In this document: positions 13,409 through 60,235 of the stretch, piece by piece
Layout of the letters: each line of letters starts with the position of its first letter
Position numbering within the stretch: the first letter of the stretch is position 1
Assembly: GCA_934434555.1 (NCBI GenBank)
Contig: CAKRZX010000006.1
Coordinates: forward strand, 20,983-84,982
From: an uncultured Clostridia bacterium
Lineage (GTDB): Bacteria > Bacillota > Clostridia > Christensenellales > QALW01
Reading direction: 5' to 3'
Length of the DNA: 64,000 nt
Notes under the pieces: generated by a model
Told to the model about the DNA's origin: nothing
The model's database searches: none
Seen by the model: only the letters and a program-made list of their open reading frames with translations
Made by a program: the position numbers and the translations under genes

Positions 13409-13431
13409 AATCCGCTTTTTGCGGATTTTTT
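13408..13431 (+). terminator. rho-independent terminator
   Basis: ATCCGC-TTTTT-GCGGAT followed by a T-run, immediately after the stop at 13408. Confidence 0.7.
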
Positions 13432-13440
13432 AATTTAATA

Positions 13441-13469
13441 TTGACAAAATGAAAGATATACGGTATAAT
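13441..13469 (+). promoter_or_regulatory. consensus sigma-A promoter (TTGACA-17 bp-TATAAT)
   Basis: TTGACA 13441-13446, exactly 17 bp, TATAAT 13464-13469. About 55 nt upstream of the 13526 ATG. Confidence 0.65.
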
Positions 13470-13525
13470 TACAACATATGTTGCACAACATGTGTAATAC
13501 AGACGTATTTTAAGGAACAAAGCAA

Positions 13526-25041: not shown

Positions 25042-26061
25042 ATGAAAAAAATATTTACGGCAGTAATTGCCGTTGCAGTTGCGGCAATGTCGATACTCAA
25101 TATGTCGGCATTCGCGCAGGGCACAAACTATTTTACGGGAAACAAATCAACCGTTGATGAGTGCGCCTGCAAAATCACAAAGACCACCGTTGACGGAACG
25201 GTTGTTTACGATGTAACAAATATGTCCTCGTCAATCGGTTTCCCCAATATGGCAATTTACGACGCAAGTAAAAGAGCGTTTGAATCGCAGAGCGACAAAA
25301 CACTGACCCTTATTGCCGCCTTTGACGCGCGTATGGATTTTGCGCCCGGTGTGGACGTTATAACTGCAAATATCACATTGCGCAACTGGGACTTCAATAA
25401 GGCAAATATGTCCGAATATGAAGCGATTAACGCAAAGAGTGACAATCAGTTGCTGTTCTATCCGCCTGTAAATGACGGACGCAACCTTGTTATCAAACTT
25501 CAAAAAGGTGTGCAGTTTACCAATGAATGGCAGACATATGCCGTTTCGTTTGAGGTAACAAAAGACGATTTCCAGAACGGCGCGGGAACCGGCTGGGGAC
25601 TTTCCCTTGACCACTTTGACCTTTACGCAAGCGTAAGACGTGCGCAGATTAAGAATGTGGGCGTTTATCTTGAAAGCGAATATGAATACACCGAACCCGA
25701 AGAAGTTGTTACTCCCACTCCCGAAGAGACCGCAAAGCCTACCGCAACTCCCACGGCGACCGCGGGCGCAACGGCAACACCTACTCCCAAGAGCGACGAG
25801 AGCGGATATTATACCCTTGATTCGGACGGAAATTATGTTGCCGTATCAAATGCTGACCTTAAAACAATGGAACAGGGAACGGTTGTTTATCAAAAGAACG
25901 GTGATAAATACGTTAAGGGACAGATTGTAGACGTAAACGGTTCCAAAGGATTTAAGGCTGACAGCACATTTAACCCGCTGTTCGTTATTATTCCCGTAGC
26001 GGCGGTTGTTGTAATAGGCGCTGTTGTTGCAGTGATTGTAATCAAAAAGAAGAAAAAGTAA
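25042..26061 (+). CDS. surface protein: signal peptide, one CBM-like module, Pro/Thr linker, small domain, C-terminal TM anchor
   Basis: 339 aa. Signal peptide MKKIFTAVIAVAVAAMSILNMSAFA. Linker TPTPEETAKPTATPTATAGATATPTP. C-terminal FVIIPVAAVVVIGAVVAVIVIKKKKK. Confidence 0.6.
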   Translation: MKKIFTAVIAVAVAAMSILNMSAFAQGTNYFTGNKSTVDECACKITKTTVDGTVVYDVTNMSSSIGFPNMAIYDASKRAFESQSDKTLTLIAAFDARMDFAPGVDVITANITLRNWDFNKANMSEYEAINAKSDNQLLFYPPVNDGRNLVIKLQKGVQFTNEWQTYAVSFEVTKDDFQNGAGTGWGLSLDHFDLYASVRRAQIKNVGVYLESEYEYTEPEEVVTPTPEETAKPTATPTATAGATATPTPKSDESGYYTLDSDGNYVAVSNADLKTMEQGTVVYQKNGDKYVKGQIVDVNGSKGFKADSTFNPLFVIIPVAAVVVIGAVVAVIVIKKKKK

Positions 26062-29849: not shown

Positions 29850-29951
29850 GTGAAAAAAGAATACAACGAGCCGACAATAAGGGTTGTTGAAATTACGGCA
29901 AGTGATTTGCTTACCGAAAGCGGCATTGAATTACCCGAGGAAGATTTATAA
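29850..29951 (+). CDS. candidate 33-aa acidic small protein / leader peptide
   Basis: GTG start 6 nt after AAGGGGGAG. Translation (M)KKEYNEPTIRVVEITASDLLTESGIELPEEDL. The TAA stop abuts the Shine-Dalgarno sequence of the 1411-aa gene. Not in the supplied ORF track (below its size cutoff). Confidence 0.35.
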   Translation: MKKEYNEPTIRVVEITASDLLTESGIELPEEDL

Positions 29952-29967
29952 TAAAGGAGAATGTAGA

Positions 29968-32900: not shown

Positions 32901-34200
32901 TATTAAAGAGGACGGAAAACATTTTTCCTACAATGACGGCACGCCGTTCTTTTATCTGGGCGACACACACTGGACGATGCTTTTGGAAGAGTATGATACC
33001 CGTTTTAAGTATATTGCCGACAAAAGAGCCGAACAGGGTTTTACGGTGTACCAAAGTCAGCCCATAACCGACAGCACAACCCCGCTTTTTAATTTTACCG
33101 ACCATAATGTTTCGTTAAGAGACATTGAGGGAATGAAAACGGTTGATAAATACTTTGATTATATCGCACAAAAGGGATTTGTTCACGCAAACGGCTGTCT
33201 GTTTTTTGAAGATGCATTCAGAAAAGCCGACGAGAGCGGCAATACAAATTTGAAAAACGACCATAATTATCTTAAAGCCATAACAAGGCACTGGGTGGCG
33301 AGGTATTCCGCGTATCCTGTTATATGGACGCTTGCACAGGAAGCGGACAGCGAGAAAAACAGAGTTTATGCATCAAATGATAATCCGTGGATAAAAATTG
33401 CCCGGTACATAAACGACTACGATGCATATTCGCACCCGCTTACCGCACATCAGGAAACGGCGGAAAAGATTACGGCAAGCAATTCACTGTTCACTTTGGC
33501 TGAAAAAGACGGAATAACAACGGGACATTCTTTCTTCGGTGCACAGTGGAAACCTTCTCGGTTAAACGGCAACACGGATTTTACGCCGTTTAAGGATTAC
33601 TATGATTCTCAAAAGCCTGCGGTTATGTACGAGAGTTATTACGAAAACTATAAGACAAAAGCCTACGGTGCAAGGGTAGAGGGCTATACGGCGTATCTGA
33701 CGGGTATGTGCGGTTTCGGCTACGGCGTAAGCGACATTTGGCACTTGCTTAACGATGACGATGTGAATTTGATAAAACCGTCAAATAACGATGGATTTGA
33801 TACCGTAACGGTAGAAGATAAGCACACGGCATATACCGAATCGGTGAAACTGGGCAGCCAGATGACCGTAATGAAAAATTTCTTTTCAAAAATAAACTGG
33901 TGGGAACTTAAACCGGATTTCGGTGACGAATATGCATTTAAGCCCAAAGCAAGCGACTATTTTGTTGCGGCAAGAGACGAGAACAAAACGTTGTTTGTTG
34001 TTTATCTGTACCGCAATATTCAACAGTCGGGCGGGTACGTGACTAATCTTGACACATCGGCAACGTATACAGCGAAATGGTTTAATCCGCGTGACGGATA
34101 CGAACAGATTATAAATTCTTCTGTAAGCGGCGATTCTTTCTGCGTACCTGAAAAGCCGTCACAATACGATTGGGTTCTGATTTTAACAAAAAACAGTTAG
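29968..34200 (+). CDS. secreted multidomain glycosidase: signal peptide, 2 near-identical CBM-like modules, a third CBM4/9-like module, uncharacterised middle region, C-terminal DUF5060+DUF4038 (GH140-like) catalytic region
   Basis: 1411 aa from MKKFAALLLSVILVAGVFTGVTFVNA with AAAGGAGAA Shine-Dalgarno; the 29884 start is rejected. C-terminal VPLFWDGGSTYKVRFAPTKTGMWNY, TPFFYLGDTHW, QGFTVYQSQ, YTAKWFNPRDGY are paralogous to the 21384 gene. Confidence 0.8.
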   Translation: MKKFAALLLSVILVAGVFTGVTFVNAESEESYFESFEEWKEGYEFPKTASIEGDLGLFWADANKDSFTVSTEQVKNGSKAGKIVSGANYKDTGAWLTNSLIKRVVTQNETYELSFWYYSTAATKLHVCYRSGTNNQFASGWWADIKANIEVKVNEWTYVTVQFEGADCMKYVNDSAYDAFIVVRSDKTAGATAYIDDISLCKYQPVAGEYKEYFESYEEGYEFPKTASIEGDLGLFWADADKDSFTVSNEQVKNGSKAGKIVSGANYKDTGVWLTNSLVKRVVTTEETYVLSFWYYSTAATQLSVSYRTGTNNPLDGISGKWWQDIKNGIQVNAGEWTYVTVQFEGADCMNYVSNSTYAANVIIRSTKTAGAVAYIDDISLCSVNGFEADALTLSQNGNCDNGTENWFTWDFFGGTNAKIEAAEVDGNKCIKFSPDNSYSSVGFDLSPYIVKDSSMASLGWRYGGFGAGYYTVSFRIKAIGLEEGEKRVMALGLVGNTLNNKVAYLNPISASGLEREISNEWTTVSSTFAVDDTFLSQAAKSSGKYNITLRVDGNKRGYGDSLNNTFAPFDYYIDDLTIQYVKFDNVQPALGSSIMVSYKVPKTAIDKNCYVKFETANGEENVYPTEESEYVFTLKNISPKMLTENIKATLYAKDNTVLYVKESYSIAQYCNDLFDSGKADEKTKTLIADLLKYGEYAQLYTGYNTENLPFSSLSDARKSYATASDPVLTSVTDKNYKVIENASVNIKSASVILTDAVACKFYFDGKPDEVKMVLGDKTYTRTEIGFDSAKNRYYAVFDEVPIYSMNEQFEITAYKDGAAASNTLLYSVESYAASKANNTSTPYLADLVKAMINYGTSSRNYKAGSTATQWISTEFAFSSTKEISEEYAPYVYADAVFSCNGAELTVPLFWDGGSTYKVRFAPTKTGMWNYKIVSRQNKVIGEASNYWVFDDTLDGLNGSFYVSAAEETAPEIYKHGFIKEDGKHFSYNDGTPFFYLGDTHWTMLLEEYDTRFKYIADKRAEQGFTVYQSQPITDSTTPLFNFTDHNVSLRDIEGMKTVDKYFDYIAQKGFVHANGCLFFEDAFRKADESGNTNLKNDHNYLKAITRHWVARYSAYPVIWTLAQEADSEKNRVYASNDNPWIKIARYINDYDAYSHPLTAHQETAEKITASNSLFTLAEKDGITTGHSFFGAQWKPSRLNGNTDFTPFKDYYDSQKPAVMYESYYENYKTKAYGARVEGYTAYLTGMCGFGYGVSDIWHLLNDDDVNLIKPSNNDGFDTVTVEDKHTAYTESVKLGSQMTVMKNFFSKINWWELKPDFGDEYAFKPKASDYFVAARDENKTLFVVYLYRNIQQSGGYVTNLDTSATYTAKWFNPRDGYEQIINSSVSGDSFCVPEKPSQYDWVLILTKNS
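30064..31113 (+). repeat. intragenic tandem duplication of a CBM-like module (period 534 nt)
   Basis: Copies at about 30064-30570 and about 30598-31113. Exact shared runs of 42 nt (GCGAGCATTGAGGGCGATTTAGGGCTTTTCTGGGCTGATGCG), 68 nt (CGAGCAGGTTAAAAACGG...GATACCGGCG) and 47 nt (GAATGGACGTATGTAACCGTTCAGTTTGAGGGCGCTGACTGTATGAA). Confidence 0.9.
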
Positions 34201-34336: not shown

Positions 34337-34375
34337 ATGCAAAGAATTAATGCAAATTCAATCGGAGAAGAATAT

Positions 34376-34969
34376 ATGAGAAAACTGTTTTCAGCCGCGG
34401 TTGCGGCGATAGTTGCGGCGGTGCTTTTTTCGGGTTGTTCGGCAAAAAAGTTTGAAAGCGTGCTTCCGCCTGAAAGGGAGTTTCCGCAAGCGGAAGAGTA
34501 TGAGTTTACCCAAGCGGTAATAGGTGATATTGTTGTTAAAAGAACGCTTCACGGAAACAAACACGGGAATACTCTTTATCTTTTCAGCGGTAACGATTAC
34601 GGGTTTACCGTAGGGGAAAAGGGAACTGTTACCTATACGGATTTTGATGATGTATACACTGCTGACGGTGAGCTTGTATCTGCGCCCCAAAACGGTATGG
34701 GTGCGTTTGTAGTTAAACACGATGTAATTAGCGGCATATCGGACGGTTTCCCCGGCACATTTACCGTGACCGTTGCCGAATTTTATAATTGTGTTACGGT
34801 TCCCCGAAATGCCGTTGTTATTCTTGACGATGAGGGTTCGGCACTTGTCAAGAAGGTTGACGAAAATGGTCTTTTGTACGACAAGGAAATAAAAGTCGGC
34901 GCAAGGGACAACAAATACTATCAGGTGCTCTCCGGGCTTGAAGAGGGCGAAAGCGTGGTGGTAAGATGA
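34376..34969 (+). CDS. lipoprotein, short HlyD/MacA-like periplasmic-adaptor homolog (beta-barrel part only)
   Basis: 197 aa from MRKLFSAAVAAIVAAVLFSGCSA (lipobox). C-terminal KVGARDNKYYQVLSGLEEGESVVV resembles the adaptor C-terminal domain. No coiled-coil hairpin. ATGA overlap with the permease gene. Confidence 0.55.
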   Translation: MRKLFSAAVAAIVAAVLFSGCSAKKFESVLPPEREFPQAEEYEFTQAVIGDIVVKRTLHGNKHGNTLYLFSGNDYGFTVGEKGTVTYTDFDDVYTADGELVSAPQNGMGAFVVKHDVISGISDGFPGTFTVTVAEFYNCVTVPRNAVVILDDEGSALVKKVDENGLLYDKEIKVGARDNKYYQVLSGLEEGESVVVR

Positions 34970-40197: not shown

Positions 40198-40355
40198 AAC
40201 TTCACCTCACCGATATTATAACCTATGCAATAGTATAAATCAAGTTATTTTCCTGTATAGTGCTAAAAATATATAGATTTTTTACTATAAATCGGCACAC
40301 CGATGTTGTACAATACAGTTACCGAAATAAAAATATATGAAAGGGCGTGCATTTT

Positions 40356-42137
40356 ATGAACGTTAAAATCGGAATAAGACCCGTTATTGACGGGCGCTGG
40401 GGCGGCGTAAGGGAGAGCCTTGAACAACAGACAATGAATATGGCGCTTTCTGCCAAGAAACTTATTGAGGAAAACCTCTGTTATGCAGACGGTACTCCGG
40501 CAGAATGTGTTATCGGCTGTACCACAATCGGCGGCGGTGCCGAAGCGGCACGTGTTGCGGAGCAGTTTTCAAAGGAAAACGTATGCGCAACGCTTTCGGT
40601 AACTCCCTGCTGGTGCTACGGAAGCGAAACAATGGATTTGGACCCCAAGACCATAAAGGCGGTATGGGGCTTTAACGGAACGGAACGTCCCGGTGCGGTA
40701 TATCTTGCGGCGGCAATGGCGGCGCACGCACAGCGCGGGCTTCCCGCTTTTGCAATTTACGGTCACGACGTAAAGGATAAGGACGACACCGAAATTCCCG
40801 AGGATGTAAAGGAAAAGATTCTGCTTTTTGCCCGCGGCGCAATTGCGGCAGGGCAGATGAAAGGCAGAGCATACGTTAACTTCGGTTCAATCGCCATGGG
40901 AATCGCAGGTTCGTTCTGCGACGCAGATTTCTTCCAGAAATATTTGGGAATCCGTGCCGAATGGGTTGACGAAACCGAAATTCTGCGCAGAATGACGCTT
41001 CATATTTATGATGAAGAGGAATATCAGGCAGCGCTTAAATGGGTTAAAGCAAACTGCAAAGAGGGCTTTGACAAGAACGCGGGCAAGAATTTCCCCGAGA
41101 TTATTAAAAAGAGCAAGGTAGTTGACCCCGATAAGGATTGGGAGTTCGTTACCAAAATGGCGATAATAATCAAGGATATTATGCACGGCAATAAGAAACT
41201 TGATGAAATGGGCTGGCACGAAGAAGCGCTTGGCAGAAACGGCATTGCCGGCGGATTCCAGGGTCAGCGTATGTGGACGGATTGGCTTCCGAACGGCGAT
41301 TTTGCCGAATCCATACTCAATACGTCCTTTGACTGGAACGGAAAGGGTGCACCCACCGTGCTTGCCACCGAAAACGACACTCTTAACGGCGCAACAATGC
41401 TTTTGCTTAACCTGCTTACCGGTAAGGCACCGCTGTTCTCCGATGTAAGAACATACTGGTCGCCCGAGGCTGTTGAACGCGTAACCGGTACAAAACTTAC
41501 CGGCAAAGCGGCAAACGGATTTATGCATCTTATAAATTCCGGTGCAACTGCGCTTGATGCAACAGGCGCCTCAAAGGACAGCGACGGCAACGGCACAATG
41601 AAAGAATGGTGGAATATGACCGACGGTGATATTAAGGCTTGCCTTGATAACAGCGATTGGTGCAGAGCCGACTACGAATACTTCCGCGGCGGTGGTTTTT
41701 CAAGCCATTTCAAGACACTTGCGGAAATGCCCGTTACAATGGCGCGTCTGTGCCTTGTTGACGGCGTAGGACCCGTTATGCAGATTGCAGAGGGATATAC
41801 CTGCGTGCTTGATGAAAAGACACACGAGCTTATCGACAAGCGTACCGACCCCACATGGCCCACTACCTGGTTTGCACCTATCCTTACCGGTAAGGGCGCA
41901 TTTACGGACGTTTACTCCGTAATGGCAAACTGGGGCGCCAACCACGGCGCGTGGATTCACGGCCACGTAGGCGCAGAACTGATTACGCTCTGCTCGATGC
42001 TCCGTATTCCCGTAAGTATGCACAACGTTAGCGACGAAAAGGTTTTCCGTCCGCAATCGTGGGGACTTATGGGAACCGACAGTAAGGAAAGCGCGGACTT
42101 CAAAGCCTGTGAAACTTACGGTCCCCTGTATAAGTAA
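40356..42137 (+). CDS. fucI: L-fucose isomerase
   Basis: 593 aa from MNVKIGIRPVIDGRWGGVRESLEQQTMNMA, near-identical in pattern to the E. coli FucI N-terminus. Length matches. Confidence 0.92.
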   Translation: MNVKIGIRPVIDGRWGGVRESLEQQTMNMALSAKKLIEENLCYADGTPAECVIGCTTIGGGAEAARVAEQFSKENVCATLSVTPCWCYGSETMDLDPKTIKAVWGFNGTERPGAVYLAAAMAAHAQRGLPAFAIYGHDVKDKDDTEIPEDVKEKILLFARGAIAAGQMKGRAYVNFGSIAMGIAGSFCDADFFQKYLGIRAEWVDETEILRRMTLHIYDEEEYQAALKWVKANCKEGFDKNAGKNFPEIIKKSKVVDPDKDWEFVTKMAIIIKDIMHGNKKLDEMGWHEEALGRNGIAGGFQGQRMWTDWLPNGDFAESILNTSFDWNGKGAPTVLATENDTLNGATMLLLNLLTGKAPLFSDVRTYWSPEAVERVTGTKLTGKAANGFMHLINSGATALDATGASKDSDGNGTMKEWWNMTDGDIKACLDNSDWCRADYEYFRGGGFSSHFKTLAEMPVTMARLCLVDGVGPVMQIAEGYTCVLDEKTHELIDKRTDPTWPTTWFAPILTGKGAFTDVYSVMANWGANHGAWIHGHVGAELITLCSMLRIPVSMHNVSDEKVFRPQSWGLMGTDSKESADFKACETYGPLYK

Positions 42138-43329: not shown

Positions 43330-43332
43330 AAA

Positions 43333-43359
43333 ACACGGCGCGGATAACCCGCGCCGTGT
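43333..43359. terminator. bidirectional hairpin terminator between convergent genes
   Basis: ACACGGCGCGG-ATAAC-CCGCGCCGTGT flanked by an A-run (5' side) and a T-rich tract (3' side). Confidence 0.6.
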
Positions 43360-43487
43360 TAATATTTATGAATGTAAATGCGGGAATCACGTTTTTCGCC
43401 GTCACATCTAACGCTGCTGTAAAATTCCCAGCCGTATCTTTCTTCTCGGAGAACCGCTTTGCGGCACGGGTTTTAAGTTCGGGAAAA

Positions 43488-44054
43488 TCAGCAATGCTTT
43501 TCATATTTCTGTTTTAAGCCCGCATATGCGTCGGAAAGGGCACGGCTTACAAAATCATCGTCCCAGTCAAGATATCCGGTGGCAATCATTGTAGCCATTC
43601 CGTGTACGTAAACCCACATTTCGGTGTAAAATTCCGCCGCATCTCTTTTGCTTATGCCCACCTGTTTGGTGATTATATCCACAAATTCGTCGGAATCTGC
43701 TTGCAAAGGACCGGATTCATTTGTGCGGTCGCGCATAAAAAGCACTTTGAACAGTTCCTTTTCGTTGCGGGCAAAGCGCACATAAGCCATACCGCAGCAC
43801 TTGAACGGGGGATATTTACCCGCTTCGATTTCGGCGCGAATGTAATCACGGTGAATCTTGTCCGCCGCGGAAACAACTGCTGCCTGAACCTGCGCCATAG
43901 AATCAAAATAACTGAAAACGGGGCGCGAGGAAGAACCCAATTTATCGCCCAATGCACGCGCAGTAACCGCAGAAAATCCCTTTTCACGGGTAATTTCAAC
44001 AGCGGCATTTATTATTTCGTCCTTGGTAAACAGAAATTTGCGCGGCATAAACAT
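43488..44054 (-). CDS. TetR/AcrR family transcriptional regulator
   Basis: 188 aa. N-terminal HTH IINAAVEITREKGFSAVTARALGDKLGSSSRPVFSYF. Confidence 0.8.
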   Translation of the reverse strand: MFMPRKFLFTKDEIINAAVEITREKGFSAVTARALGDKLGSSSRPVFSYFDSMAQVQAAVVSAADKIHRDYIRAEIEAGKYPPFKCCGMAYVRFARNEKELFKVLFMRDRTNESGPLQADSDEFVDIITKQVGISKRDAAEFYTEMWVYVHGMATMIATGYLDWDDDFVSRALSDAYAGLKQKYEKHC

Positions 44055-44108
44055 ATCTCCCTTTTGTTCAGTGTGGATATTATAAATTCAACTTTTACTT
44101 TTGTCAAA

Positions 44109-44133
44109 TAAAAAAGGGCGTATCGCTACGCCC
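44109..44133 (-). terminator. rho-independent terminator of the hexuronate operon (minus strand)
   Basis: On the minus strand: GGGCGTA-GCGA-TACGCCC followed by TTTTTT. Confidence 0.7.
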
Positions 44134-44143: not shown

Positions 44144-44989
44144 TTAAACTCCGCTGTAAGCCGCAAAGCCGCCGTCAACGGGAACGACTACACCCGTAAC
44201 AAAGCCGGAAGCCCTTTCCGAGCAGAGCCACAGAAGCGTACCGGTAAGGTCGTCAGTTTCGCCGAAGCGGTTCATGGGGGTTCCGCGAAGAATCTTTTCG
44301 GTTCTTGCGGTGGGTTTGCCGTCCTTAAACAACAGGTCGCGGTTCTGATTCGTTACAAAGAAGCCGGGAGCAATGGCGTTTACCCTTATTCCGCAGGGTG
44401 CGAAATGAACAGCAAGCCACTGGGTCAGGTTTGAAACAGCCGCTTTTGCCGCAGAATATGCGGGAATTTTGGTAAGGGGACGGAAAGCGTTCATTGATGA
44501 AACATTAAGAATCGTTCCGCCTTTTTTTACCATATCCTTTGCAAAAGCCTGTGTGGTAAGCACTGCCGCAACAACGTTAAGGTCGAAAACAAAACGTATG
44601 CCGTCAGGGTCAAGTTCAAAGAATGTTTTAAGGTCCTTACTGTCAAGCATATCAGGCGTCATCGTTTCGTTATCGGTAGTACCGCGGGGATTGTTTCCGC
44701 CTGCGCCGTTGATAAGAATATCGCATTCACCGAAAGTTCTAACTACCGTTTCGTGTGCGGCGGCAAGGGAATCGGATTTAAGGCAGTTTGCCTCAACCGC
44801 AATGGCTTTTCCGCCGTCGGCGGTAATTTCGTCAACAACTTTCTGTGCTGCGGTTGTATTGATGTCCAAAAGCGCAACTTTTGCCTTGCACTCTGCAAGC
44901 GCCTTTGCAAAGCCCGAGCAAAGCACACCGCCTGCACCGGTTATAACCGCAACTTTATTTTCAAGGTCTATACTAAAAGGTAAGTTCAT
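44144..44989 (-). CDS. uxuB: SDR-family oxidoreductase, YjmF/UxuB-like (probable fructuronate/mannonate oxidoreductase)
   Basis: 281 aa from MNLPFSIDLENKVAVITGAGGVLC (TGxxGxxG). NAAG-type motif INGAGGN, catalytic YSAAK. ATGA-coupled to uxuA, as B. subtilis yjmE-yjmF. Confidence 0.65.
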   Translation of the reverse strand: MNLPFSIDLENKVAVITGAGGVLCSGFAKALAECKAKVALLDINTTAAQKVVDEITADGGKAIAVEANCLKSDSLAAAHETVVRTFGECDILINGAGGNNPRGTTDNETMTPDMLDSKDLKTFFELDPDGIRFVFDLNVVAAVLTTQAFAKDMVKKGGTILNVSSMNAFRPLTKIPAYSAAKAAVSNLTQWLAVHFAPCGIRVNAIAPGFFVTNQNRDLLFKDGKPTARTEKILRGTPMNRFGETDDLTGTLLWLCSERASGFVTGVVVPVDGGFAAYSGV

Positions 44990-46035
44990 TTTTTGTCTCC
45001 TTTCACAATGGCTTCCCAAAGTCCGTTAAGGTAGGAAGCGCCTAACGCCCTGTCAAACAGACCGTAGCCGGGTCTGCCGTCCTCACCCCAGATGTTTCTG
45101 CCGTGGTCGGGGCGGGTGTAGCCGTCGAAGCCGTTATCGTAGAGGGCTTTCATAATGCCGTACATATCAAGCGAGCCGCAGGCAGTGGGGTGGGGACTTT
45201 CGTTAAATTTGCCCTCTCCCGTAAACCTGATGTTGCGGGCGTGCAGAAAATGCACTCTGCCCATTTTTGCGTATTTTGCGGCAAGATGAACCATATCGTT
45301 TTTGGGGTCGCAGCCAAGGGAACCGGTGCAAAGCGTTATGCCGTTGTATTTTGAATCAACAGCCGCAAACATTCTGTCGATGTTTTTCTCGCACGTGATA
45401 ATGCGGGGCAGACCGAACATACTCCACGGCGGGTCGTCCGGGTGAATAGCCATTTTAACGTCGCACTCCCCGCAAACGGGAATAATCTTCTTTAAGAAGT
45501 AGATTAAGTTTTGCATTAACTGCTCTTCGTCTATGTTCTTATAGGCGTCAAGTAAGCCATTAAGCTGCTCTTTTGTGTAACTTTCGTCCCAGCCGGGCAA
45601 TGAAAGTTCGCCTTTTGCCGGGTCCATTGCGTTTACCGTCTTTTGGTCGTAAGCAAGACAGGTTGAACCGTCGGGATTCTTCATTTTAAGGTCGGAACGG
45701 AGCCAGTCGAACACGGGCATAAAGTTGTAGCAGATAACCTTAACGCCCGCCGCACCTAAATTGCGAATGTTTTGGCAGTAGTTTTCGATAAGTTTGTCAC
45801 GGCTCGGCGCGCCCATTTTGATGTCCTCGTGAACGGGAACGCTTTCGATAACCTCCATTTTAAGGCTGTGGGCGTTCACTTTTTCTTTAAGGGCAAGAAT
45901 GCGCTCCAAGGGCCAGACCTCGCCGACGGGAACATCGTAAATTGCGGTTACAACGCCGCTCATCTGCGGAATCTGACTGATGTATTCAAGCGTGACGGGG
46001 TCGTTTTCGCCGTACCAGCGGAAAGTCATATCCAT
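44986..46035 (-). CDS. uxuA: mannonate dehydratase
   Basis: 349 aa. MDMTFRWYGENDPVTLEYISQIP N-terminus typical of UxuA. Confidence 0.9.
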   Translation of the reverse strand: MDMTFRWYGENDPVTLEYISQIPQMSGVVTAIYDVPVGEVWPLERILALKEKVNAHSLKMEVIESVPVHEDIKMGAPSRDKLIENYCQNIRNLGAAGVKVICYNFMPVFDWLRSDLKMKNPDGSTCLAYDQKTVNAMDPAKGELSLPGWDESYTKEQLNGLLDAYKNIDEEQLMQNLIYFLKKIIPVCGECDVKMAIHPDDPPWSMFGLPRIITCEKNIDRMFAAVDSKYNGITLCTGSLGCDPKNDMVHLAAKYAKMGRVHFLHARNIRFTGEGKFNESPHPTACGSLDMYGIMKALYDNGFDGYTRPDHGRNIWGEDGRPGYGLFDRALGASYLNGLWEAIVKGDKK

Positions 46036-46053
46036 AAATCAATTTCTCCTTTA

Positions 46054-47439
46054 TTAAAATCCGAAATAATCTTTTGCGTTTTTATAGGAAATACCCTCAA
46101 TGATTTTTCCGCAATCGGGGTCAAACTCCCCGTTTTCAACGTAAGAGCCTATCTCGGAGCAAAGTATGCGGCGGAAGAAGTCAAAACGCACGTACGACGT
46201 GAAACTGCGTGAGTCGGTAAGCATACCTATGAATCTGCCCAAAAGCCCCGCATTGGCAAGGGAATGCAACTGTGCGCGGATACCGTCAACGTGGTCGTTA
46301 AACCACCACGCCGAACCGAGTTGCATTTTGCCGGGAACGGCTTCTGAAAAAGCACCCGTCATAGCGGCAATCATATCGTTTACGGTGGCGTTAAGGCAGT
46401 AGAATACCATTTTGGGAAGCCCGGCTTCCTTATTGATTTCATCAAGCATTCTCGCAAAATCGACGGCTTTAATCGGGTCGCCTACAACGTCAATACCGCT
46501 GTCGGCACCCACAAGCGAAAACAGTTTGCTGTTTACGTTGCGCAGGGGCGCCATATGCATCTGCATAACCATATCGCGCTTGAAGTAACGCGTTGCAAAG
46601 AAGCGTGTCATAAAGTCGGTATACTTATCCAAATCCTTTTGCGGAATTTTGTTTCCGTCAAGCACGCGGGCAAATACTTCTTTTGCGTCCTCATATTCGC
46701 CTTTTTCGGGCGGAATATAACCTAATGCGTGGTCGGCAACCTTGCATCCGAGCGAGCAGAAGTAGTCAAGCCGCTTTTCAAGCACGGTAAGAAGCGCGGC
46801 AAAATCGTTGATTTCCGTATTCTCGCTTGCACCTAATTTTTTGATGTAGGGGAGAATATCGTCACGGTTCAGCCCGTAGCAGATAATGTCGGGACGGAAC
46901 GTGGGCAAAACCTTTGCGTATGTTTTACCAAGCATAAGTTTGTGGTATTCAAGGTCGTCGGCGGGGTCATCGGTGGTGCAGATAACGCGTACGTCACAGC
47001 GCTTAATCAGTTCCTGTGAGGAAAAACCGCCCTGCGCCATACGCTCGTTCGCTTCATTCCAGATTCTCTCCGCATTTTTTGCATTAAGCGGAATGTTTAT
47101 GCCGAACAACTGTTTTAATTCCATATGCGACCAGTAATAAAGCGGGTTGCCTGCGGCGTATTTCATAGTAGATGCAAAGGCAATGAATTTGTCCTTGTAG
47201 TCAGCGTCGCCCGTAATTAACTTTTCGTCTATTCCGTTCTGGCGCATTGCACGCCACTTATAATGGTCGCCTGCAAGCCAGAGTTCACCGATGTTGCCAA
47301 AGCACTTGTTTTCATAAATTTCTTTGGGAGAGAGGTGGCAGTGATAGTCGATAATCGGCTGATTTTTTGCGTAACTGTTATACAGATTTTCGGCTGTCTC
47401 GCTTTTGAGCAGCACCGAGTCGTCAAAAAAATCTTTCAT
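46054..47439 (-). CDS. uxaC: glucuronate isomerase
   Basis: 461 aa. PIIDYHCHLSPKEI motif and length typical of UxaC. Confidence 0.92.
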   Translation of the reverse strand: MKDFFDDSVLLKSETAENLYNSYAKNQPIIDYHCHLSPKEIYENKCFGNIGELWLAGDHYKWRAMRQNGIDEKLITGDADYKDKFIAFASTMKYAAGNPLYYWSHMELKQLFGINIPLNAKNAERIWNEANERMAQGGFSSQELIKRCDVRVICTTDDPADDLEYHKLMLGKTYAKVLPTFRPDIICYGLNRDDILPYIKKLGASENTEINDFAALLTVLEKRLDYFCSLGCKVADHALGYIPPEKGEYEDAKEVFARVLDGNKIPQKDLDKYTDFMTRFFATRYFKRDMVMQMHMAPLRNVNSKLFSLVGADSGIDVVGDPIKAVDFARMLDEINKEAGLPKMVFYCLNATVNDMIAAMTGAFSEAVPGKMQLGSAWWFNDHVDGIRAQLHSLANAGLLGRFIGMLTDSRSFTSYVRFDFFRRILCSEIGSYVENGEFDPDCGKIIEGISYKNAKDYFGF

Positions 47440-48434
47440 AATTCTATATCCTTTCCGTCGGAAGCGTACATTGCCAAAAGCAGTTTGACAGCGGGAATCG
47501 CGTCAGCAACGGTTACAGGCATAGGTTCGCCTGTTTCAAGGGCGGAATAAAAAGCGTTAAAAAGCATTTTATGCCCGGCGCCCCAGTAAGGCTTGCCGTC
47601 TATAATCTCAGCGCTGTCGTGAAGTTCCTGCTTTACGCCGTCAATGTACAAATCGTCGTTTTTAAGTTCAAGCAGCATATTTTCGCATTTAACCGTAAGG
47701 GAAACGGGAGCGTCTTCAAAGTTTGCGGTAGTTGCGTGGAACATTCCGTGTCCGCCGTCCTTAAAATAAAGATAAGCATCACAGGTATCCTCAACGTCAA
47801 TTACGCCCTGCAAGTGGAAATTTGCCGTTTTTGCGCAGAGTTTTTCCGGCTCGCCGCAAATCCACTGCAACAGGTCAAGGGTGTGAATTGCCTGATTTAT
47901 CATCACGCCGCCGCCCTCGGTAGCCTTGAATCCGCGCCAGTGCGAATCCCGGTAATAACTTTCGCCTCTGGACCACAAAACGGAGCCAGACGCAAAAATA
48001 ACTTTGCCCGCTTTGCCGCTTGAAACGAGTTCTTTTGCGGTTTTGTTGCGTTTAAGAAATCTGTTTTGAAAAGAAACGCACACTCTGCCGCTGCTTTCTT
48101 TTTCCGCATCGATTATTGCCTGAGCCTGTGCCAAAGATATTGACACAGGCTTTTCAAGCATTACATTTATGTTGCGTTTAAGCGCTTCGACAGCCATTTC
48201 ACTGTGGAGATAGTGGGGCGTGCAAACGTGAAGCACGTCCGGTTTAACCTCGTCAAGCATTTTTTTGTAATCATCGAAAACAAGCGCGTCGGGCGCATAA
48301 GTTTCTTTGATTTTGTTCGCTCTTTCGGGAAGAATATCGCACACGGCAACAGTATTTACGTTTTTCATTTTTGTAAGATTGCCCGCGTGGGTATTCGCTA
48401 TCGCTCCGCAGCCTACAATAGCAGATCTGAACAT
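47436..48434 (-). CDS. Gfo/Idh/MocA family NAD(P)-dependent oxidoreductase
   Basis: 332 aa. N-terminal Rossmann AIVGCGAIANTH, EKP motif (MLEKPVS), C-terminal alpha/beta domain. 4-nt overlap with uxaC. Confidence 0.8.
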   Translation of the reverse strand: MFRSAIVGCGAIANTHAGNLTKMKNVNTVAVCDILPERANKIKETYAPDALVFDDYKKMLDEVKPDVLHVCTPHYLHSEMAVEALKRNINVMLEKPVSISLAQAQAIIDAEKESSGRVCVSFQNRFLKRNKTAKELVSSGKAGKVIFASGSVLWSRGESYYRDSHWRGFKATEGGGVMINQAIHTLDLLQWICGEPEKLCAKTANFHLQGVIDVEDTCDAYLYFKDGGHGMFHATTANFEDAPVSLTVKCENMLLELKNDDLYIDGVKQELHDSAEIIDGKPYWGAGHKMLFNAFYSALETGEPMPVTVADAIPAVKLLLAMYASDGKDIEL

Positions 48435-48448
48435 AAAATCAACTCCGA

Positions 48449-49654
48449 TCAGTTATTGTATGTTGAAGAAAGGTCTGCGGCAGTGCCTGTTACGCTTTCA
48501 TCTTTGGTAACTTTTGAATCACGGATATGTTCCTGCAAAAGTTCGTAGAATTTCTTGCCGTCGATGGGAAGTTCAACGGTGGAGTTCGTCCATGCGGAAA
48601 GCAGCATTGCGTTTGCAAGCGTTACGCCTTTGATGCCGTCCGATGCGGGAGCATAGAGGGGCTCAAGCCCGAGAACGGCGTTTGCAAAGTTGTTGAGAAT
48701 ACCAACGTGCTGCGGATTGTCGCCGCCAAGTTTATATTCAATATAATCAACCTTGGGTGTGCCGAAGCCCTGTGAGCTTGTTTCAAGGAAGGTTTTGCAG
48801 GAAATTTCGTTCTTGTGGAATTTAAGCGTGCCGCCTGCGTCATAAATAAGCTTGCCCATTTCACCCGTGATTTCAAGACGGTTTGTGCCGGGAGCCTCAC
48901 CGGTTGAGGTGATAAATACGCCCGTTGCGCCGTTGGGATACTCAAAGAACGCGGTAACTTCATCTTCAACTTCAATATCGTGATATTTGCCGAAATATGC
49001 ATGGGCAGTAACTTTTGAGGGCATCATATCGGGAATCCACTGGAACAGGTCGATGTTATGGGGAGCCTGATTGTACAGAACGCCGCCGCCCTCGCCTTTC
49101 CATGTTGCACGCCATCCGCCGGAGTTATAGTAACTCTGCGTGCGGAACCAGTCGGTGATAATCCAGTTAAGACGGGTTATTTTGCCCAGTTCGCCGTCGG
49201 CAATCATCTTTTTCATCTGCTTAAAGTAGGGGTTGGTTCTTTGGTTGAACATTATGCCCAGTTTAAGGTCAGGGTGTTTCTTTGCTTCTTCAAGCATTTC
49301 CTCAACTTGAAGAGTGTAAACGCCGGCGGGCTTTTCAACTATAACGTTCATTCCCGCTTTCATTGCCTTAATGGCGTATTCGGGGTGGAAATAGTGGGGA
49401 ATTGCAACGATTACAACGTCGCAGGTTTTCGCGGCGATAAGCTCGTCGCCCGATGCATAATAATGCATTCCGTTTCGGTATTCTTCATTGGAGTTTTCCG
49501 AAACCATTTTCTTTATCTTTTCTACTTTCTCGGGAACAATATCGGCTACCGCGGTAAGAGTACCGTTTTTGATGCGGTCAAGTGTATTAAAATTGTAAAA
49601 ATGGCTTGTACCCATATTACCCAAACCGATAATACCGAATCTTACTTTCTCCAT
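48449..49654 (-). CDS. Gfo/Idh/MocA family NAD(P)-dependent oxidoreductase (long form)
   Basis: 401 aa. FGIIGLGNMGTSH, VEKPAG, GGWRATWKGEGGGVLYNQAPHNIDLFQW. Confidence 0.8.
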   Translation of the reverse strand: MEKVRFGIIGLGNMGTSHFYNFNTLDRIKNGTLTAVADIVPEKVEKIKKMVSENSNEEYRNGMHYYASGDELIAAKTCDVVIVAIPHYFHPEYAIKAMKAGMNVIVEKPAGVYTLQVEEMLEEAKKHPDLKLGIMFNQRTNPYFKQMKKMIADGELGKITRLNWIITDWFRTQSYYNSGGWRATWKGEGGGVLYNQAPHNIDLFQWIPDMMPSKVTAHAYFGKYHDIEVEDEVTAFFEYPNGATGVFITSTGEAPGTNRLEITGEMGKLIYDAGGTLKFHKNEISCKTFLETSSQGFGTPKVDYIEYKLGGDNPQHVGILNNFANAVLGLEPLYAPASDGIKGVTLANAMLLSAWTNSTVELPIDGKKFYELLQEHIRDSKVTKDESVTGTAADLSSTYNN

Positions 49655-50529
49655 TTTCTGTCGTCTCCTTCAATAAAACCTAAATTTTTTAATATATCTT
49701 TAAGCGCGGAAACTGCCGCGTCAAAAGATTCGTTTGAGTTTGCATAACTGAACTTATGCTTTAAGGTACGGTTGTCCAGATTTGAATAACCGATAAACTT
49801 GAACAGGTGGGGTTCAACCGTAAGGAACGTATCCTTGTCGCCGCGGGCTGAATCTACAATTTCAAGTACTTCCTTAATTTTGCCGTCGCCGTAGCCTGCG
49901 GGAACGATTGAATGCTCGTGCAGAGTGCCGTCCTTTATATGGCAGTATTCAACGTGTTTTGCCATATGCTCAATTGCCCAAAGAATATCTTCGTCTTCCA
50001 TTATATAGTTGCAGGGGTCAAAGATATTTTTAAGGCGGGGAAGTTGCTCGGCAAGATAAACACACTCTTTTGCCAGTCTGCCGAAAATGCGCGCTTCGTT
50101 CTCGTGGCAGAGAGAAATATTTTCTTTTTCTGCATAGTCAAGCATAGCGTTAAGGCGGGAAAGAACCTCGTCCTTGTAATCCATAGCGTCCCTGCCGTCG
50201 GGAATGAAGAAACTGAACATTCTCATTTTATCCGCGCCAAGAATCTTGCAGGTCTTGCACGCTTTTTTGAACTTTTCAAAGTGGGGAGCAAAATCATCGG
50301 TGATATTGTATTTTCCGATAGGCGAACCGAGTGACGAAACATTTATTCCGTTTTCGTGCAGTTCTTCTGCGAAACCCTCGATTTCCTCATCGGTATAATC
50401 GATTACGCATTTACCGTCGATATTGCGAAGTTCGATAAAGCCGATATTGTTTCTCTTCAAGGCCGCAATCTGACCTTTAAGGTCTGCCTGTGCTTCGTCG
50501 GCAAATGCCGAAAGAATAAACCGTGCCAT
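49642..50529 (-). CDS. xylose-isomerase-like TIM-barrel protein (sugar phosphate isomerase/epimerase family)
   Basis: 295 aa. SAFADE N-terminus, CHENE, DPCN, HIKDG, TVEPH metal-ligand pattern of the AP-endonuclease-2/xylose-isomerase-like fold. Confidence 0.75.
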   Translation of the reverse strand: MARFILSAFADEAQADLKGQIAALKRNNIGFIELRNIDGKCVIDYTDEEIEGFAEELHENGINVSSLGSPIGKYNITDDFAPHFEKFKKACKTCKILGADKMRMFSFFIPDGRDAMDYKDEVLSRLNAMLDYAEKENISLCHENEARIFGRLAKECVYLAEQLPRLKNIFDPCNYIMEDEDILWAIEHMAKHVEYCHIKDGTLHEHSIVPAGYGDGKIKEVLEIVDSARGDKDTFLTVEPHLFKFIGYSNLDNRTLKHKFSYANSNESFDAAVSALKDILKNLGFIEGDDRKWRK

Positions 50530-51302
50530 TATTTAACCAATCCTTTCGATTTAAGATAATCTATGCTCTTTTTCATTTCAAGGTACGAATCGGGTGTATC
50601 AACCGCATTGTCCTGTTCAACGTAAGCAATGTCCGTACCCGCTTTTTCAAGACTGTGCAATATTTCTTCAATTGGAAGAGCGCCTGAACCGATTGGGGTT
50701 ATGCAGTTTCCGTAAGAAGCATCCGCATCTGTTTTCTTTCTGAAATCTTTAAGATGGACATAGTGAAGCCTGTCGGCAAATTTTGCAATGACTGCATCAA
50801 TATCCGCGCCTGCTACGCACGCCCATCCTGTATCAAGAATGAAGTTCCAGTCGGTATTATCATAAAGCCATTCCATAGGGATAATTCCCTCGGCGTTAGG
50901 CAAAAATTCCAAATCGTGATTATGATATGCAAAGTGAAGTCCTGCGTCTTTTATTCTTTTTGCCGGTTCGGCAAAGTCGCCGTAGAGGCGCTTGATATTG
51001 ACTTTTGCCCCATCCGTATATCCGCCGGGATAGCCAAGACCGATTGTATCGGCACCGAGAATCCTGTGGATTTCAATGAGTTCGTCGGTGTGATTTATTA
51101 TCATATCGGCGCTTGAATGTGTAAGACCGATGTGAATACCCACCTCGTCGGCAGCGTCTTTTGTCGCCCGGGCGTCAAAACCAAAGCCGCTTAACTGTAC
51201 CGACTGATACCCGAATTCTTTCATTTTCTTAAAAGTTTCTTTGATTTCCCCGGCGGAAGAACATTTATTCCTTACCGAGTAAAGTTGTGCACCTACACGC
51301 AT
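50529..51302 (-). CDS. xylose-isomerase-like TIM-barrel protein (sugar phosphate isomerase/epimerase family)
   Basis: 257 aa. YHNHDLEF, LDTGW, HLKDF, VEQD ligand pattern. First gene of the operon. Confidence 0.75.
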   Translation of the reverse strand: MRVGAQLYSVRNKCSSAGEIKETFKKMKEFGYQSVQLSGFGFDARATKDAADEVGIHIGLTHSSADMIINHTDELIEIHRILGADTIGLGYPGGYTDGAKVNIKRLYGDFAEPAKRIKDAGLHFAYHNHDLEFLPNAEGIIPMEWLYDNTDWNFILDTGWACVAGADIDAVIAKFADRLHYVHLKDFRKKTDADASYGNCITPIGSGALPIEEILHSLEKAGTDIAYVEQDNAVDTPDSYLEMKKSIDYLKSKGLVK

Positions 51303-51437
51303 TGATTTTTACCTCCGAAAAAACATATTGATATTTTTTTCAAATGGTATTATACTATATTTGAAAGAAAATTAACATTGCAAATGTTGCTGTTTTTTCG
51401 GCAACAAAATAAAAATAAACAATATGGGGGAGATTAT

Positions 51438-52250
51438 ATGGCGGATTGGTGTGAAAAAATCAGGTTTAAGGGCTTTTATTATCACCATACTTACAACGAA
51501 AGACCCTCACAGGCAGAGTTCCAGCGCCACTGCCACAATATGTATGAAATTATCTATATAAAAAAGGGGACAGGCACATTCAATGTTGAGGGCTCCAAAT
51601 ACGATATATATCCGGGCTGCCTGCTTGTTTTCAGACCGAGGGAATTCCACTGCATAAATATTTCGGAAAAGACGGGCTATGAACGTATTGTTGCGCATTT
51701 TGATGAAAGCATTGTGTTTGAAGCACCGGATCTTCTTCTTGATATTTTTAACAACAGAGAATTGGGCATCAAAAATATTTATCCCGACATAAGGCAGAAT
51801 ATTTCGGCGCATTTTGAGAAAATTTCGCAGTACGCAAAAATGAATGAACCGGAACGCTCCATAATGGCCAAACTGATTTTGAACGAATTGCTTGTTGTTT
51901 TGCATAATGAGTTTTCTTCAAATATAAATTCCGATTCGGGCGAAAAACTTATTAACCGGATTGTAAACTACATAAATACAAACATATCTTCGCCCCTGCG
52001 CCTGGAAGAGCTTGCCGTACAGTTTTTTATAAGTAAATATCATTTGGGGCATATGTTTAAGCAGTATACGGGAATGTCGGTTATGGAATATATTATCCGC
52101 AAGCGGGTTGTAATGGCACAGCAGATGATTGCCGACGGTTCACAGGCGTCCGCCGCCGCGCAGATGAGCGGATTTAACGACTATTCGGCTTTTTACCGCG
52201 CTTATGTAAAATACATAGGCACAAGCCCCTCAAAAGAAATTCAGCATTAA
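51438..52250 (+). CDS. AraC family transcriptional regulator (cupin sensor plus HTH)
   Basis: 270 aa from MADWCEKIRF with GGGGGAG Shine-Dalgarno. HCHNMYEIIYI cupin, C-terminal HTH. Divergent from the oxidoreductase/uxa operon. Confidence 0.8.
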   Translation: MADWCEKIRFKGFYYHHTYNERPSQAEFQRHCHNMYEIIYIKKGTGTFNVEGSKYDIYPGCLLVFRPREFHCINISEKTGYERIVAHFDESIVFEAPDLLLDIFNNRELGIKNIYPDIRQNISAHFEKISQYAKMNEPERSIMAKLILNELLVVLHNEFSSNINSDSGEKLINRIVNYINTNISSPLRLEELAVQFFISKYHLGHMFKQYTGMSVMEYIIRKRVVMAQQMIADGSQASAAAQMSGFNDYSAFYRAYVKYIGTSPSKEIQH

Positions 52251-59551: not shown

Positions 59552-60235
59552 ATGAAGAAACTTATTGCTTTGCTCTGTGTTATTTTGACGGTGTTTTGTA
59601 TCGGCTGTAAATCGCAGCCCGCCGAAACGGTACCTATGCCTGATACAACGGATTCGGAAAGCATCGGGTGTTCGTTTGTGGACAATTTGATTTATACAAA
59701 AAAGCATTTGCGCGAATATACAGAAGCGCATACGGAAAATTTGCCGCAAAACTATGTGGGTATAAATATGCTTGATGATTTCGGGCAGTTCGGCGTATAT
59801 ATGCCGGGAAACGGCAGATTCGACAGTTACTCATACCTGTTTTGGGGCGCGGGAAATTTCTATGTTAAACTAAGCATAATTCATATTGATGAAACGAGCC
59901 GATACTATATAGCGGAACCCTTTCCGTTCTATTACTTTCCGTCAAACAAGTGCGATATGCATACGTTTTCGTCAATTTTCAAAAAGGACGGCGTGTATAT
60001 TTACAAGAATATTGCCTATGTTTACGAAAACAACCGCTTGCAGTCGGTGGCGTGGGTGTCGGATAACAGGTATTTCACGCTTTGCGCCGGAGACCAAAAA
60101 TCAAGCCTTGCTCAATATCCTCTTGATGAGAACACCTTTGAAGCCAGACTTCTTAACCTTGATACGGCAGTTGCGGCGATAACCGAAAGGTTCGGCGAAC
60201 CCAAGAATATCAAAGAGTTGATAAAACAACAATAG
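59552..60235 (+). CDS. hypothetical lipoprotein
   Basis: 227 aa. Signal plus lipobox LLCVILTVFCIGC. No recognisable domain. Confidence 0.55.
   Translation: MKKLIALLCVILTVFCIGCKSQPAETVPMPDTTDSESIGCSFVDNLIYTKKHLREYTEAHTENLPQNYVGINMLDDFGQFGVYMPGNGRFDSYSYLFWGAGNFYVKLSIIHIDETSRYYIAEPFPFYYFPSNKCDMHTFSSIFKKDGVYIYKNIAYVYENNRLQSVAWVSDNRYFTLCAGDQKSSLAQYPLDENTFEARLLNLDTAVAAITERFGEPKNIKELIKQQ

Follow-up and report, generated by a model that had tools for sequence, protein, structure and literature searches.

The window analyzed here, a 64,000 bp stretch of the genome of an uncultured Clostridia bacterium (contig CAKRZX010000006.1, positions 20,983 to 84,982), contains seven tightly packed open reading frames (ORFs) on its minus strand (bp 44144–51302) with a divergent cupin-AraC gene on one side and a terminator on the other; this apparent operon, a candidate for the breakdown of glucuronides without a glycosidase, is the subject of this report. 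In the order in which they would be transcribed, the genes encode two xylose-isomerase-like TIM barrel proteins of family PF01261, here called TIM-A (257 amino acids, bp 50529–51302) and TIM-B (295 amino acids, bp 49642–50529), two Gfo/Idh/MocA family oxidoreductases, Oxi1 (401 amino acids, bp 48449–49654) and Oxi2 (332 amino acids, bp 47436–48434), and three predicted enzymes of glucuronate catabolism, UxaC (461 amino acids, bp 46054–47439), UxuA (349 amino acids, bp 44986–46035) and a short-chain dehydrogenase/reductase (SDR) type UxuB (bp 44144–45019). TIM-A and TIM-B share one nucleotide at a TAATG junction, TIM-B overlaps Oxi1 by 13 nucleotides, and the Oxi2 stop codon overlaps the UxaC start codon by four (ATGA); gaps of 14 and 18 nucleotides separate Oxi1 from Oxi2 and UxaC from UxuA, respectively, and the UxuA/UxuB junction is a second 4-nucleotide ATGA overlap if the SDR begins at the ATG at bp 44989. 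The latter is the likely start, giving a protein of 281 amino acids, the length that is also called at locus L085. A Shine-Dalgarno-like GGAG or AGGA precedes the start of each gene in the operon, and an intrinsic terminator on the same strand (bp 44106–44133; 7 bp stem with five GC pairs, GGGCGTAGCGATACGCCC then TTTTTTATTT at bp 44133–44116) follows the last one. A preliminary description of this DNA had given the seven-gene layout with its coordinates, overlaps of 4, 13, 1, and 4 nucleotides with gaps of at most 18 bp, a clean terminator, and a family for every gene including the divergent regulator; the ORF positions, the junctions in the sequence, the hairpin with its T-run, and the Pfam and NCBIfam matches bear out all of these.

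The divergent gene (bp 51378–52250, plus strand) encodes a transcriptional regulator with Pfam AraC_binding, Cupin_2, and HTH_18 domains. Its longest ORF begins with TTG, gene calls in metagenomes give proteins of 270 or 288 amino acids, and translation may in fact begin at the ATG at bp 51438. The intergenic control region between it and TIM-A (bp 51303–51377) is 75 bp long, or 135 bp if the ATG at bp 51438 is used, and includes the TIM-A ribosome-binding site GGAGG. Promoter-like hexamers, which are consensus matches only, occur here on both strands (51383→51354 on the minus and 51328→51356 on the plus strand). An Rfam scan of the window gave no match.

The three downstream enzymes all lie above the curated cut-offs of their families. 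UxaC, the putative isomerase that converts glucuronate to fructuronate, scores 585 bits against PF02614 and 515 bits against NF002794 (cut-off 387); UxuA, the putative mannonate dehydratase that makes 2-keto-3-deoxygluconate (KDG), scores 505 bits against PF03786 and 497 bits against NF003027 (cut-off 191); and the SDR, a YjmF-like fructuronate reductase (D-mannonate oxidoreductase), matches NF006132 with 418 bits (cut-off 281) over residues 14–291. The Uxu branch of the Ashwell pathway is specific to the gluco series, and its presence argues for glucuronides and against galacturonides as the source of the sugar. Pfam scans of 48 window ORFs of at least 150 amino acids (the non-overlapping ones, which are likely genes; 11 of the 48 have no Pfam match) found no glycoside hydrolase family 2 (GH2) protein, sugar or uronate transporter, PfkB kinase, or 2-keto-3-deoxy-6-phosphogluconate aldolase, in agreement with the earlier statement that β-glucuronidase, a uronate transporter, and kdgK and kdgA are absent from this DNA.

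The nature of the four upstream proteins is indicated most clearly by Oxi1, whose closest solved relative is PDB entry 8TDI, "P2B11 Glucuronide-3-dehydrogenase" (296 bits, E = 3.7e-87, with 42% of residues identical across the whole protein); the next PDB match has 103 bits (E = 2e-28). P2B11, a metagenomic fosmid whose source is an unknown Gram-positive bacterium of the gut, carries the genes of four enzymes, Iso1, Oxido1, Oxido2, and Iso2, which together hydrolyze α- and β-glucuronides and a thioglucuronide through oxidation at C3, β-elimination, hydration, and re-reduction (Nasseri et al., bioRxiv 10.1101/2024.03.25.586180; Nature 2024;631:199). The reaction is stimulated by Mn2+ or Co2+ and needs no added NAD(P)(H), both Iso proteins accelerate hydrolysis in vitro, with Iso1 clearly raising the rate, and 6-phospho, 6-sulfo, and sulfoquinovoside substrates are cleaved slowly while glucosides are not substrates (bioRxiv 10.1101/2024.03.25.586180). 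The substrate pocket residues published for Oxido1 are N147, W179, R181, Y185, N205, and H209 (Nasseri et al., bioRxiv 10.1101/2024.03.25.586180). This numbering differs from that of the 8TDI PDB sequence by a constant offset of 10, deduced in the present analysis, and all six residues are retained in Oxi1 as N137, W169, R171, Y175, N195, and H199; agreement of all six under one and the same offset is very unlikely to have arisen by chance. The six are also invariant in 17 Oxi1 homologs with identities of 55–79%. Oxi1 is thus predicted from its sequence to be a glucuronide 3-dehydrogenase with tightly bound NAD. Of this pocket, Oxi2 retains W, R, Y, N, and H, and it has Q in place of the NAD-contacting N (N137 of Oxi1), as does P2B11 Oxido2, and it may be a 3-keto-glucuronate reductase or a redox-recycling partner of Oxi1.

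A search with the 8TDI sequence found a contig (L081) that carries a 99% identical copy of the crystallized enzyme (P0121), and its genes lie in the order Iso (295 amino acids), Oxido1 (399 amino acids), Oxido2 (333 amino acids), Iso (289 amino acids), followed by a GH3 gene on the opposite strand and by MFS_2 and UxaC genes. The four window proteins have one-to-one reciprocal counterparts on this contig: Oxi1 is 41% identical to its Oxido1 (E = 1.5e-98), Oxi2 is 35% identical to Oxido2 and each is the other's best match (E = 1e-62), TIM-B is 34% identical to Iso1 (E = 3e-50), and TIM-A is 23% identical to Iso2 (E = 2e-12). The match of TIM-A to the Iso2 counterpart at a second locus, L089, is somewhat closer (26% identity, E = 9e-19). 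None of the four upstream proteins has a signal peptide, and their N-termini open directly with a Rossmann GxGxxG motif or with strand 1 of the barrel, so the system should be cytosolic.

Two further families of glycoside 3-dehydrogenases had been named in the preliminary description as candidates, and neither fits these oxidoreductases. The levoglucosan dehydrogenase LgdA model NF052479 gives 71 and 70 bits, far below its cut-off of 650, and structures of the C-glycoside enzyme DgpA score 45–100 bits in PDB searches, below 8TDI at 116–296 bits. No chain of a DgpB/C-type C-glycoside eliminase is among the matches of a TIM-A profile, and a gene for a small DgpC-like subunit is absent from the operon.

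The same TIM-A profile, built from 17 homologs, has as its best match AtOGE (PDB 8BVK, E = 5e-45), and it matches the AL1/BT1 lyase structures 8TCD, 8TCS, and 8TCT with E-values of 4e-41 to 5.5e-36. AtOGE is a Mn2+-dependent O-glycoside β-eliminase of Agrobacterium tumefaciens (Bitter et al., Nat Commun 2023, PMC10628242). Its metal ligands H132, D163, H189, and E233 align with TIM-A H127, D157, H183, and E229, and its catalytic H134 aligns with TIM-A H129; similarly, H127, H129, D157, W160, H183, and E229 align with the AL1/BT1 motif. The ligands of such eliminases lie on strands β5–β8. Across the 17 homologs, H127, H129, D157, H183, and E229 either do not vary or show conservation of at least 90%. 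The profile matches together with this complete set of ligand and catalytic residues make the sequence-based assignment of TIM-A as a β-eliminase well supported; it is probably a Mn2+/Co2+-dependent 3-keto-glucuronide 1,2-lyase, the counterpart of P2B11 Iso2.

TIM-B belongs to a distinct subfamily with invariant H142, E143, N144, E145, D171, H197, E239, and H241 (H-E-N-E, D, H, and E-P-H). Its profile reaches only Art22, AsbF, IolI (E = 7e-6), and 8RO4, a 2-hydroxy-3-keto-glucal hydratase (E = 1.5e-4), and its AlphaFold model (pLDDT 93) is a generic xylose-isomerase-like TIM barrel for which Foldseek finds undifferentiated barrels of the same kind (TM-score ∼0.7, 13–18% identity), among them ketose 3-epimerases, Art22, AsbF, YcjR, and IolI. 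Because both P2B11 Iso proteins accelerate hydrolysis, and because enediolate chemistry is general to this fold, TIM-B may by analogy be a hydratase and/or a lyase that handles the opposite anomer. A single ORF of 674–677 amino acids joins TIM-B to Oxi1 in three species (L034:2521–4542, L038:793–2814, and L074:5647–7677), with TIM-B at residues 1–286 and Oxi1 at about 290–676; such fusions imply that the two proteins work together.

The lack of a close structural relative of TIM-B leaves room for a different chemistry, in which Oxi1, TIM-B, and Oxi2 would turn one epimer of a uronide or uronate into another through 3-keto intermediates, bringing galacturono-, idurono-, or gulurono- compounds into the gluco series for UxaC, UxuB, and UxuA, with cleavage being secondary or absent. 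Two dehydrogenases plus a TIM barrel are reportedly the logic of the Escherichia coli YcjQRS system, and the operon has the same combination; in addition, ketose 3-epimerases and YcjR (a 3-keto-D-glucoside 4-epimerase, 6WN6) are as similar to the TIM-B model as any other structure is, and P2B11 Oxido2 is nearly dispensable for hydrolysis in vitro. On the other hand, at 13–18% identity and a TM-score of ∼0.7 this structural similarity is at the level of the superfamily only, TIM-A carries a complete β-eliminase site, and an epimerizing role is disfavored by the clear acceleration of glucuronide hydrolysis in vitro by P2B11 Iso1, the TIM-B counterpart. We regard epimerization as very unlikely.

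An anaerobic route from inositol or another cyclitol into the hexuronate pathway, built on IolG, IolM, IolN, and IolO as in Thermotoga or on IolG, IolE, and IolI-like enzymes, was the other main proposal of the preliminary description. The best NCBIfam names are IolG for the Gfo/Idh/MocA proteins and IolE for TIM-A, the TIM-A profile finds IolE at E = 8.5e-14 and Thermotoga TM0416 at 2.6e-4, and there is the weak match of the TIM-B profile to IolI given above. The scores themselves are 97 and 102 bits against the IolG model (TIGR04380, cut-off 355) and 51 bits against the IolE model (TIGR04379, cut-off 290), and they are exceeded by those of the matches to the glucuronide 3-dehydrogenase and the β-eliminases. 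The Thermotoga inositol route is also said to enter by way of tagaturonate and to need a ring-cleaving hydrolase, and the operon has no gene for such a hydrolase. This proposal was thus not upheld, and we consider it extremely improbable that the four proteins act on cyclitols. The competing suggestion in that description, a four-step cycle of oxidation, elimination, hydration, and re-reduction that releases glucuronate from glucuronides, is supported by the 8TDI match, the one-to-one P2B11 counterparts, and the TIM-A active site.

It is quite likely that the operon specifies an AraC-controlled, cytosolic, glycosidase-free pathway for glucuronide breakdown that feeds glucuronate catabolism. 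Homology, conservation of active-site residues, and recurrent linkage (below) are observed, and the chemistry is taken by analogy from the P2B11 homologs; the natural substrates, the inducer, and the individual roles of TIM-B and Oxi2 are given as we infer them. In such a pathway, a glucuronide would be imported by a transporter encoded elsewhere, and Oxi1 would oxidize its C3 hydroxyl group with tightly bound NAD+. The 3-keto group would acidify H2, allowing TIM-A to expel the aglycone and leave a uronic 2-hydroxy-3-keto-glycal, which TIM-B would hydrate to 3-keto-glucuronate (and/or TIM-B would be the lyase for the other anomer). Re-reduction of the keto group by reduced Oxi1 or by Oxi2 would yield D-glucuronate. 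UxaC, translationally coupled to Oxi2, would then make fructuronate, the SDR-type UxuB would reduce it to mannonate, and UxuA would dehydrate mannonate to KDG, to be passed to KdgK and KdgA encoded elsewhere.

The linkage of this module to hexuronate genes recurs widely. A scan with one genome per species found an Oxi1 relative in at least 580 species, and the best 80 loci (47–73% identity) were kept; most are from gut or rumen Clostridia, with some from Paenibacillus, Lentisphaeria, Latescibacterota, and Anaerolineae. Window proteins were compared by BLAST with all ORFs within 10 kb of the Oxi1 relative, and KdgK and KdgA were called by Pfam PfkB and PF01081. At least one TIM barrel is present at 51 of the 80 loci, both at 29, and Oxi2 at 29; an AraC homolog is found at 27, divergent and upstream of the cluster at many of these, and also at L085/L086 and L089 (34% identity at the latter). 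UxuB, UxuA, and UxaC genes are present at 25, 19, and eight loci, KdgK at six, and KdgA at four, with KdgK and KdgA adjacent at several of them, and 31 loci have at least one of these five hexuronate genes, whereas for a single-copy locus the chance expectation in 20 kb of a ∼3 Mb genome is well under 1%. A survey of ortholog neighborhoods, suggested in the preliminary description, thus places hexuronate genes within 10 kb in more than a third of the loci. That description had also called a link to uxaC/uxuAB unusual; this holds for the literature, in which we found no paper that describes it, and fails for the genomes, where it is common at the 80 loci and present at L088 and L089 as well.

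The seven-gene order itself is found at 99% identity in three metagenome contigs, and in the Clostridia species of loci L001–L003 with ∼48–96% protein identity and dprA-topA synteny, so the arrangement is not a chance one. Elsewhere the gene set of the cluster is kept and its order varies; for example, the oxidoreductase genes are flanked by the TIM barrel genes at L018 and L045, and the order is TIM-B, TIM-A, Oxi1, Oxi2 at L023 and L027. The clade to which the characterized enzyme belongs shows the hexuronate link too. At L089, where Oxi1 is 76% identical to 8TDI, an AraC gene is followed by Iso, Oxi1, Oxi2, Iso, UxaC, UxuA, SDR, and MFS_2 genes, and all eight window genes have counterparts there (26–62% identity); at L088, UxuB, UxuA, UxaC, and KdgK genes lie upstream of the module and a GH2 gene lies downstream. 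GH3 and MFS_2 genes are directly upstream of the module at L090, and on the contig with the near-identical copy of the crystallized enzyme (L081:4325–10162) the GH3, MFS_2 transporter, and UxaC genes are at most 6 kb from the four-gene cluster. The unmatched ORFs that neighbor the 80 loci cluster into small families only, and Pfam searches with their representatives identified KdgK and KdgA, as well as scattered GH78-like, SASA esterase, and melibiase-like genes; this clustering with Pfam searches found no recurrent transporter among them.

Other loci show how the family varies. Tandem duplicates of both TIM-A and Oxi1 are present at L001:232–5096, and several loci (L011, L013, L021, L050, L055, and L080 among them) lack an Oxi2-type gene but carry a pair of Oxi1-type genes, suggesting that a paralog can fill the second oxidoreductase slot. 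In Paenibacillus (L017, L020, L028, L029, L035, L041, and L051) the gene behind the Oxi1 homolog encodes another, different Gfo/Idh/MocA C-domain protein of ∼360 amino acids, in place of TIM barrel or Uxu genes, and not all members of the Oxi1 family belong to a glucuronide module.

The linkage bears as well on whether the four enzymes might have glycosides of another kind as substrates (for example sulfoquinovosides, glycosides with a 6-sulfo or 6-phospho group, or neutral glucosides), with the co-transcription of uxaC-uxuA-uxuB reflecting shared regulation rather than a linear pathway. The slow cleavage of 6-phospho, 6-sulfo, and sulfoquinovoside substrates by the P2B11 enzymes could be read in this way, and neither a transporter nor an aglycone-related gene defines the substrate at the window operon. 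Nevertheless, the other anionic glycosides are slow substrates and glucosides are not used by P2B11, the Oxi2 stop codon overlaps the UxaC start codon, no sulfoglycolysis genes were found nearby in the Pfam scans of the window, and the link to UxuA, UxuB, UxaC, KdgK, or KdgA is found in 31 of the 80 species and in both clades. A substrate class other than glucuronides is thus very unlikely.

Several observations weigh against a glucuronide pathway as drawn here. The window proteins, whose activities are predicted, are only 23–42% identical to the characterized set. P2B11 Oxido2 has minor effects in vitro only (bioRxiv 10.1101/2024.03.25.586180), and Foldseek with the TIM-B model found no informative solved relative, so that its role is a guess. 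The oxidoreductase genes are not flanked by isomerase genes as they are in P2B11; in the window the two TIM barrel genes are adjacent. The Pfam scans found no transporter in the operon or the window, although the enzymes should be cytosolic. Finally, many clusters (e.g., L004, L007, L010, L056, and L058) have UxuA and UxuB genes directly behind Oxi2 without UxaC within 10 kb, and a pathway ending in free glucuronate would need UxaC elsewhere in these genomes. Either it is encoded elsewhere or these variants reach fructuronate without free glucuronate; in the latter case a TIM-B-type isomerase together with Oxi2 may send 3-keto-glucuronate straight to fructuronate.

The surroundings of the operon include several other features. 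A TetR family gene (bp 43488–44054, minus strand) comes after the operon terminator, and the same TetR gene lies behind the operon at L085; a perfect σ70 consensus (TTGACA-17-TATAAT, bp 44107–44079) lies ahead of it. Between the TetR gene and a WbsX-like gene is a hairpin (bp 43332–43360), a perfect palindrome of 12–13 bp with nine GC pairs that scores as a terminator in both strand directions. The genes at bp 15285–43329 suggest a plant-glycan utilization neighborhood: they include GH38 (bp 17113–20115), a CBM_4_9 protein, two apiosidase-like genes (bp 21384–23108 and 29884–34200, the latter encoding 1438 amino acids), a rhamnosidase-like gene (bp 27618–29702), L-fucose isomerase (bp 40347–42137), the WbsX-like gene, and three AraC/PocR regulators. 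This may hint at pectic substrates that contain glucuronic acid, such as rhamnogalacturonan II. Two ORFs in this region (bp 25042–26061 and 26149–27615) have no Pfam match, and ORFs of 200–386 amino acids without a Pfam family at E ≤ 1e-5 are found at bp 7958–9118, 11983–14182, 34337–34969, and 59552–60235; one such ORF sits between a 2-hydroxyacid dehydrogenase and a galactokinase gene.

The enzymology and the glucuronide specificity of the 3-keto module have already been published (Nasseri et al.), and a literature search found nothing beyond that work, and no later paper on a link between the module and uxaC-uxuA-uxuB. What is new is the fusion of the module in one operon with uxaC-uxuA-uxuB under a conserved AraC regulator, its permuted gene order, and the range of species in which the link occurs. 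The glucuronide-specific version of this 3-keto (non-Koshland) chemistry was previously represented by four enzymes from one fosmid, without physiological context; the overlapping stop and start codons, the AraC gene, and the TIM barrel/dehydrogenase fusions by which the module is wired to glucuronate catabolism support a nutritional role. It is conceivable, though we would stop somewhat short of calling it probable, that such operons give many gut Clostridia their physiological β-glucuronidase (GUS)-independent means of taking up and using glucuronides. The glucuronides in question may derive from drugs, hormones, bile pigments, flavonoids, or plant glycans, and may be α or β and O- or S-linked. 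If this is true, gut deconjugation has a widespread second enzymology that has been missed by GUS inhibitors and by GUS-based gene surveys. The module also represents a class of predicted glucuronide-deconjugating genes outside the count of GH2-based surveys of drug and hormone reactivation. The Oxi1 relatives in at least 580 species, and the hexuronate wiring at 31 of 80 loci, mostly in gut Clostridia, supply concrete gene sets.

Among known systems, inositol catabolism draws on the same superfamilies (Gfo/Idh/MocA and PF01261), and its Thermotoga variant also ends in the hexuronate pathway, but the 3-keto-glycoside systems are much closer relatives of the window proteins. E. coli YcjQRS likewise pairs a Gfo/Idh/MocA 3-dehydrogenase with a xylose-isomerase-like TIM barrel that acts on a 3-keto-glycoside; it epimerizes and does not cleave, it has no counterpart of the eliminase, and YcjR (6WN6) is only 13% identical to TIM-B. 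AtOGE shares with TIM-A the Mn2+ ligands His, Asp, His, and Glu and the catalytic His, yet the 3-keto-β-glucosides on which it acts come from a flavoenzyme, either a glycoside 3-oxidase or a dehydrogenase, and not from a Gfo/Idh/MocA protein, and it has no link to uronate catabolism.

Alistipes AL1–AL4 and Bacteroides thetaiotaomicron BT2156–2159 follow the same logic of oxidation, elimination, hydration, and reduction as that proposed for the window (Nasseri et al. 2024; Liou et al.; Liu et al.), with two Gfo/Idh/MocA oxidoreductases and with lyases, AL1 and BT1, that the TIM-A profile matches at E = 4e-41. Those systems reside in the periplasm, carry signal and TAT (twin-arginine translocation) peptides, act on neutral gluco- and mannosides, and use a DUF1080 jelly-roll protein as α-lyase and hydratase, whereas the window system should be cytosolic and Pfam finds no DUF1080 protein in the operon. 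The models for BT_2158 and BT_2159 (NF058561 and NF058563) score 23–48 bits, with cut-offs of 650–750, and this assignment was rejected.

With respect to the Ashwell pathway, all of UxaC, UxuB, and UxuA are present above curated cut-offs, the order uxaC-uxuA-uxuB ends the operon, and the UxuB is an SDR-type fructuronate reductase of the same type as Bacillus subtilis YjmF. Classical hexuronate operons are entered through a GH2 β-glucuronidase together with a transporter for glucuronides or hexuronates (uidABC, exuT), or by free uronate; in the window operon the 3-keto module takes the place of these, and neither KdgK nor KdgA is encoded in the window. The closest likeness is to the P2B11 cluster, which shares with the window operon its four types of protein, the six pocket residues of Oxido1, and an origin in a Gram-positive gut bacterium, and which likewise has no DUF1080 protein and no signal peptides. 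The gene order differs, being Iso1, Oxi1, Oxi2, Iso2 in P2B11 and Iso2-like, Iso1-like, Oxi1, Oxi2 in the window. The paper on P2B11 reports no apparent transporter or regulator nearby (bioRxiv 10.1101/2024.03.25.586180); in the window, unlike in that fosmid as described, translational coupling ties the module to uxaC-uxuA-uxuB, and there is a divergent AraC gene.

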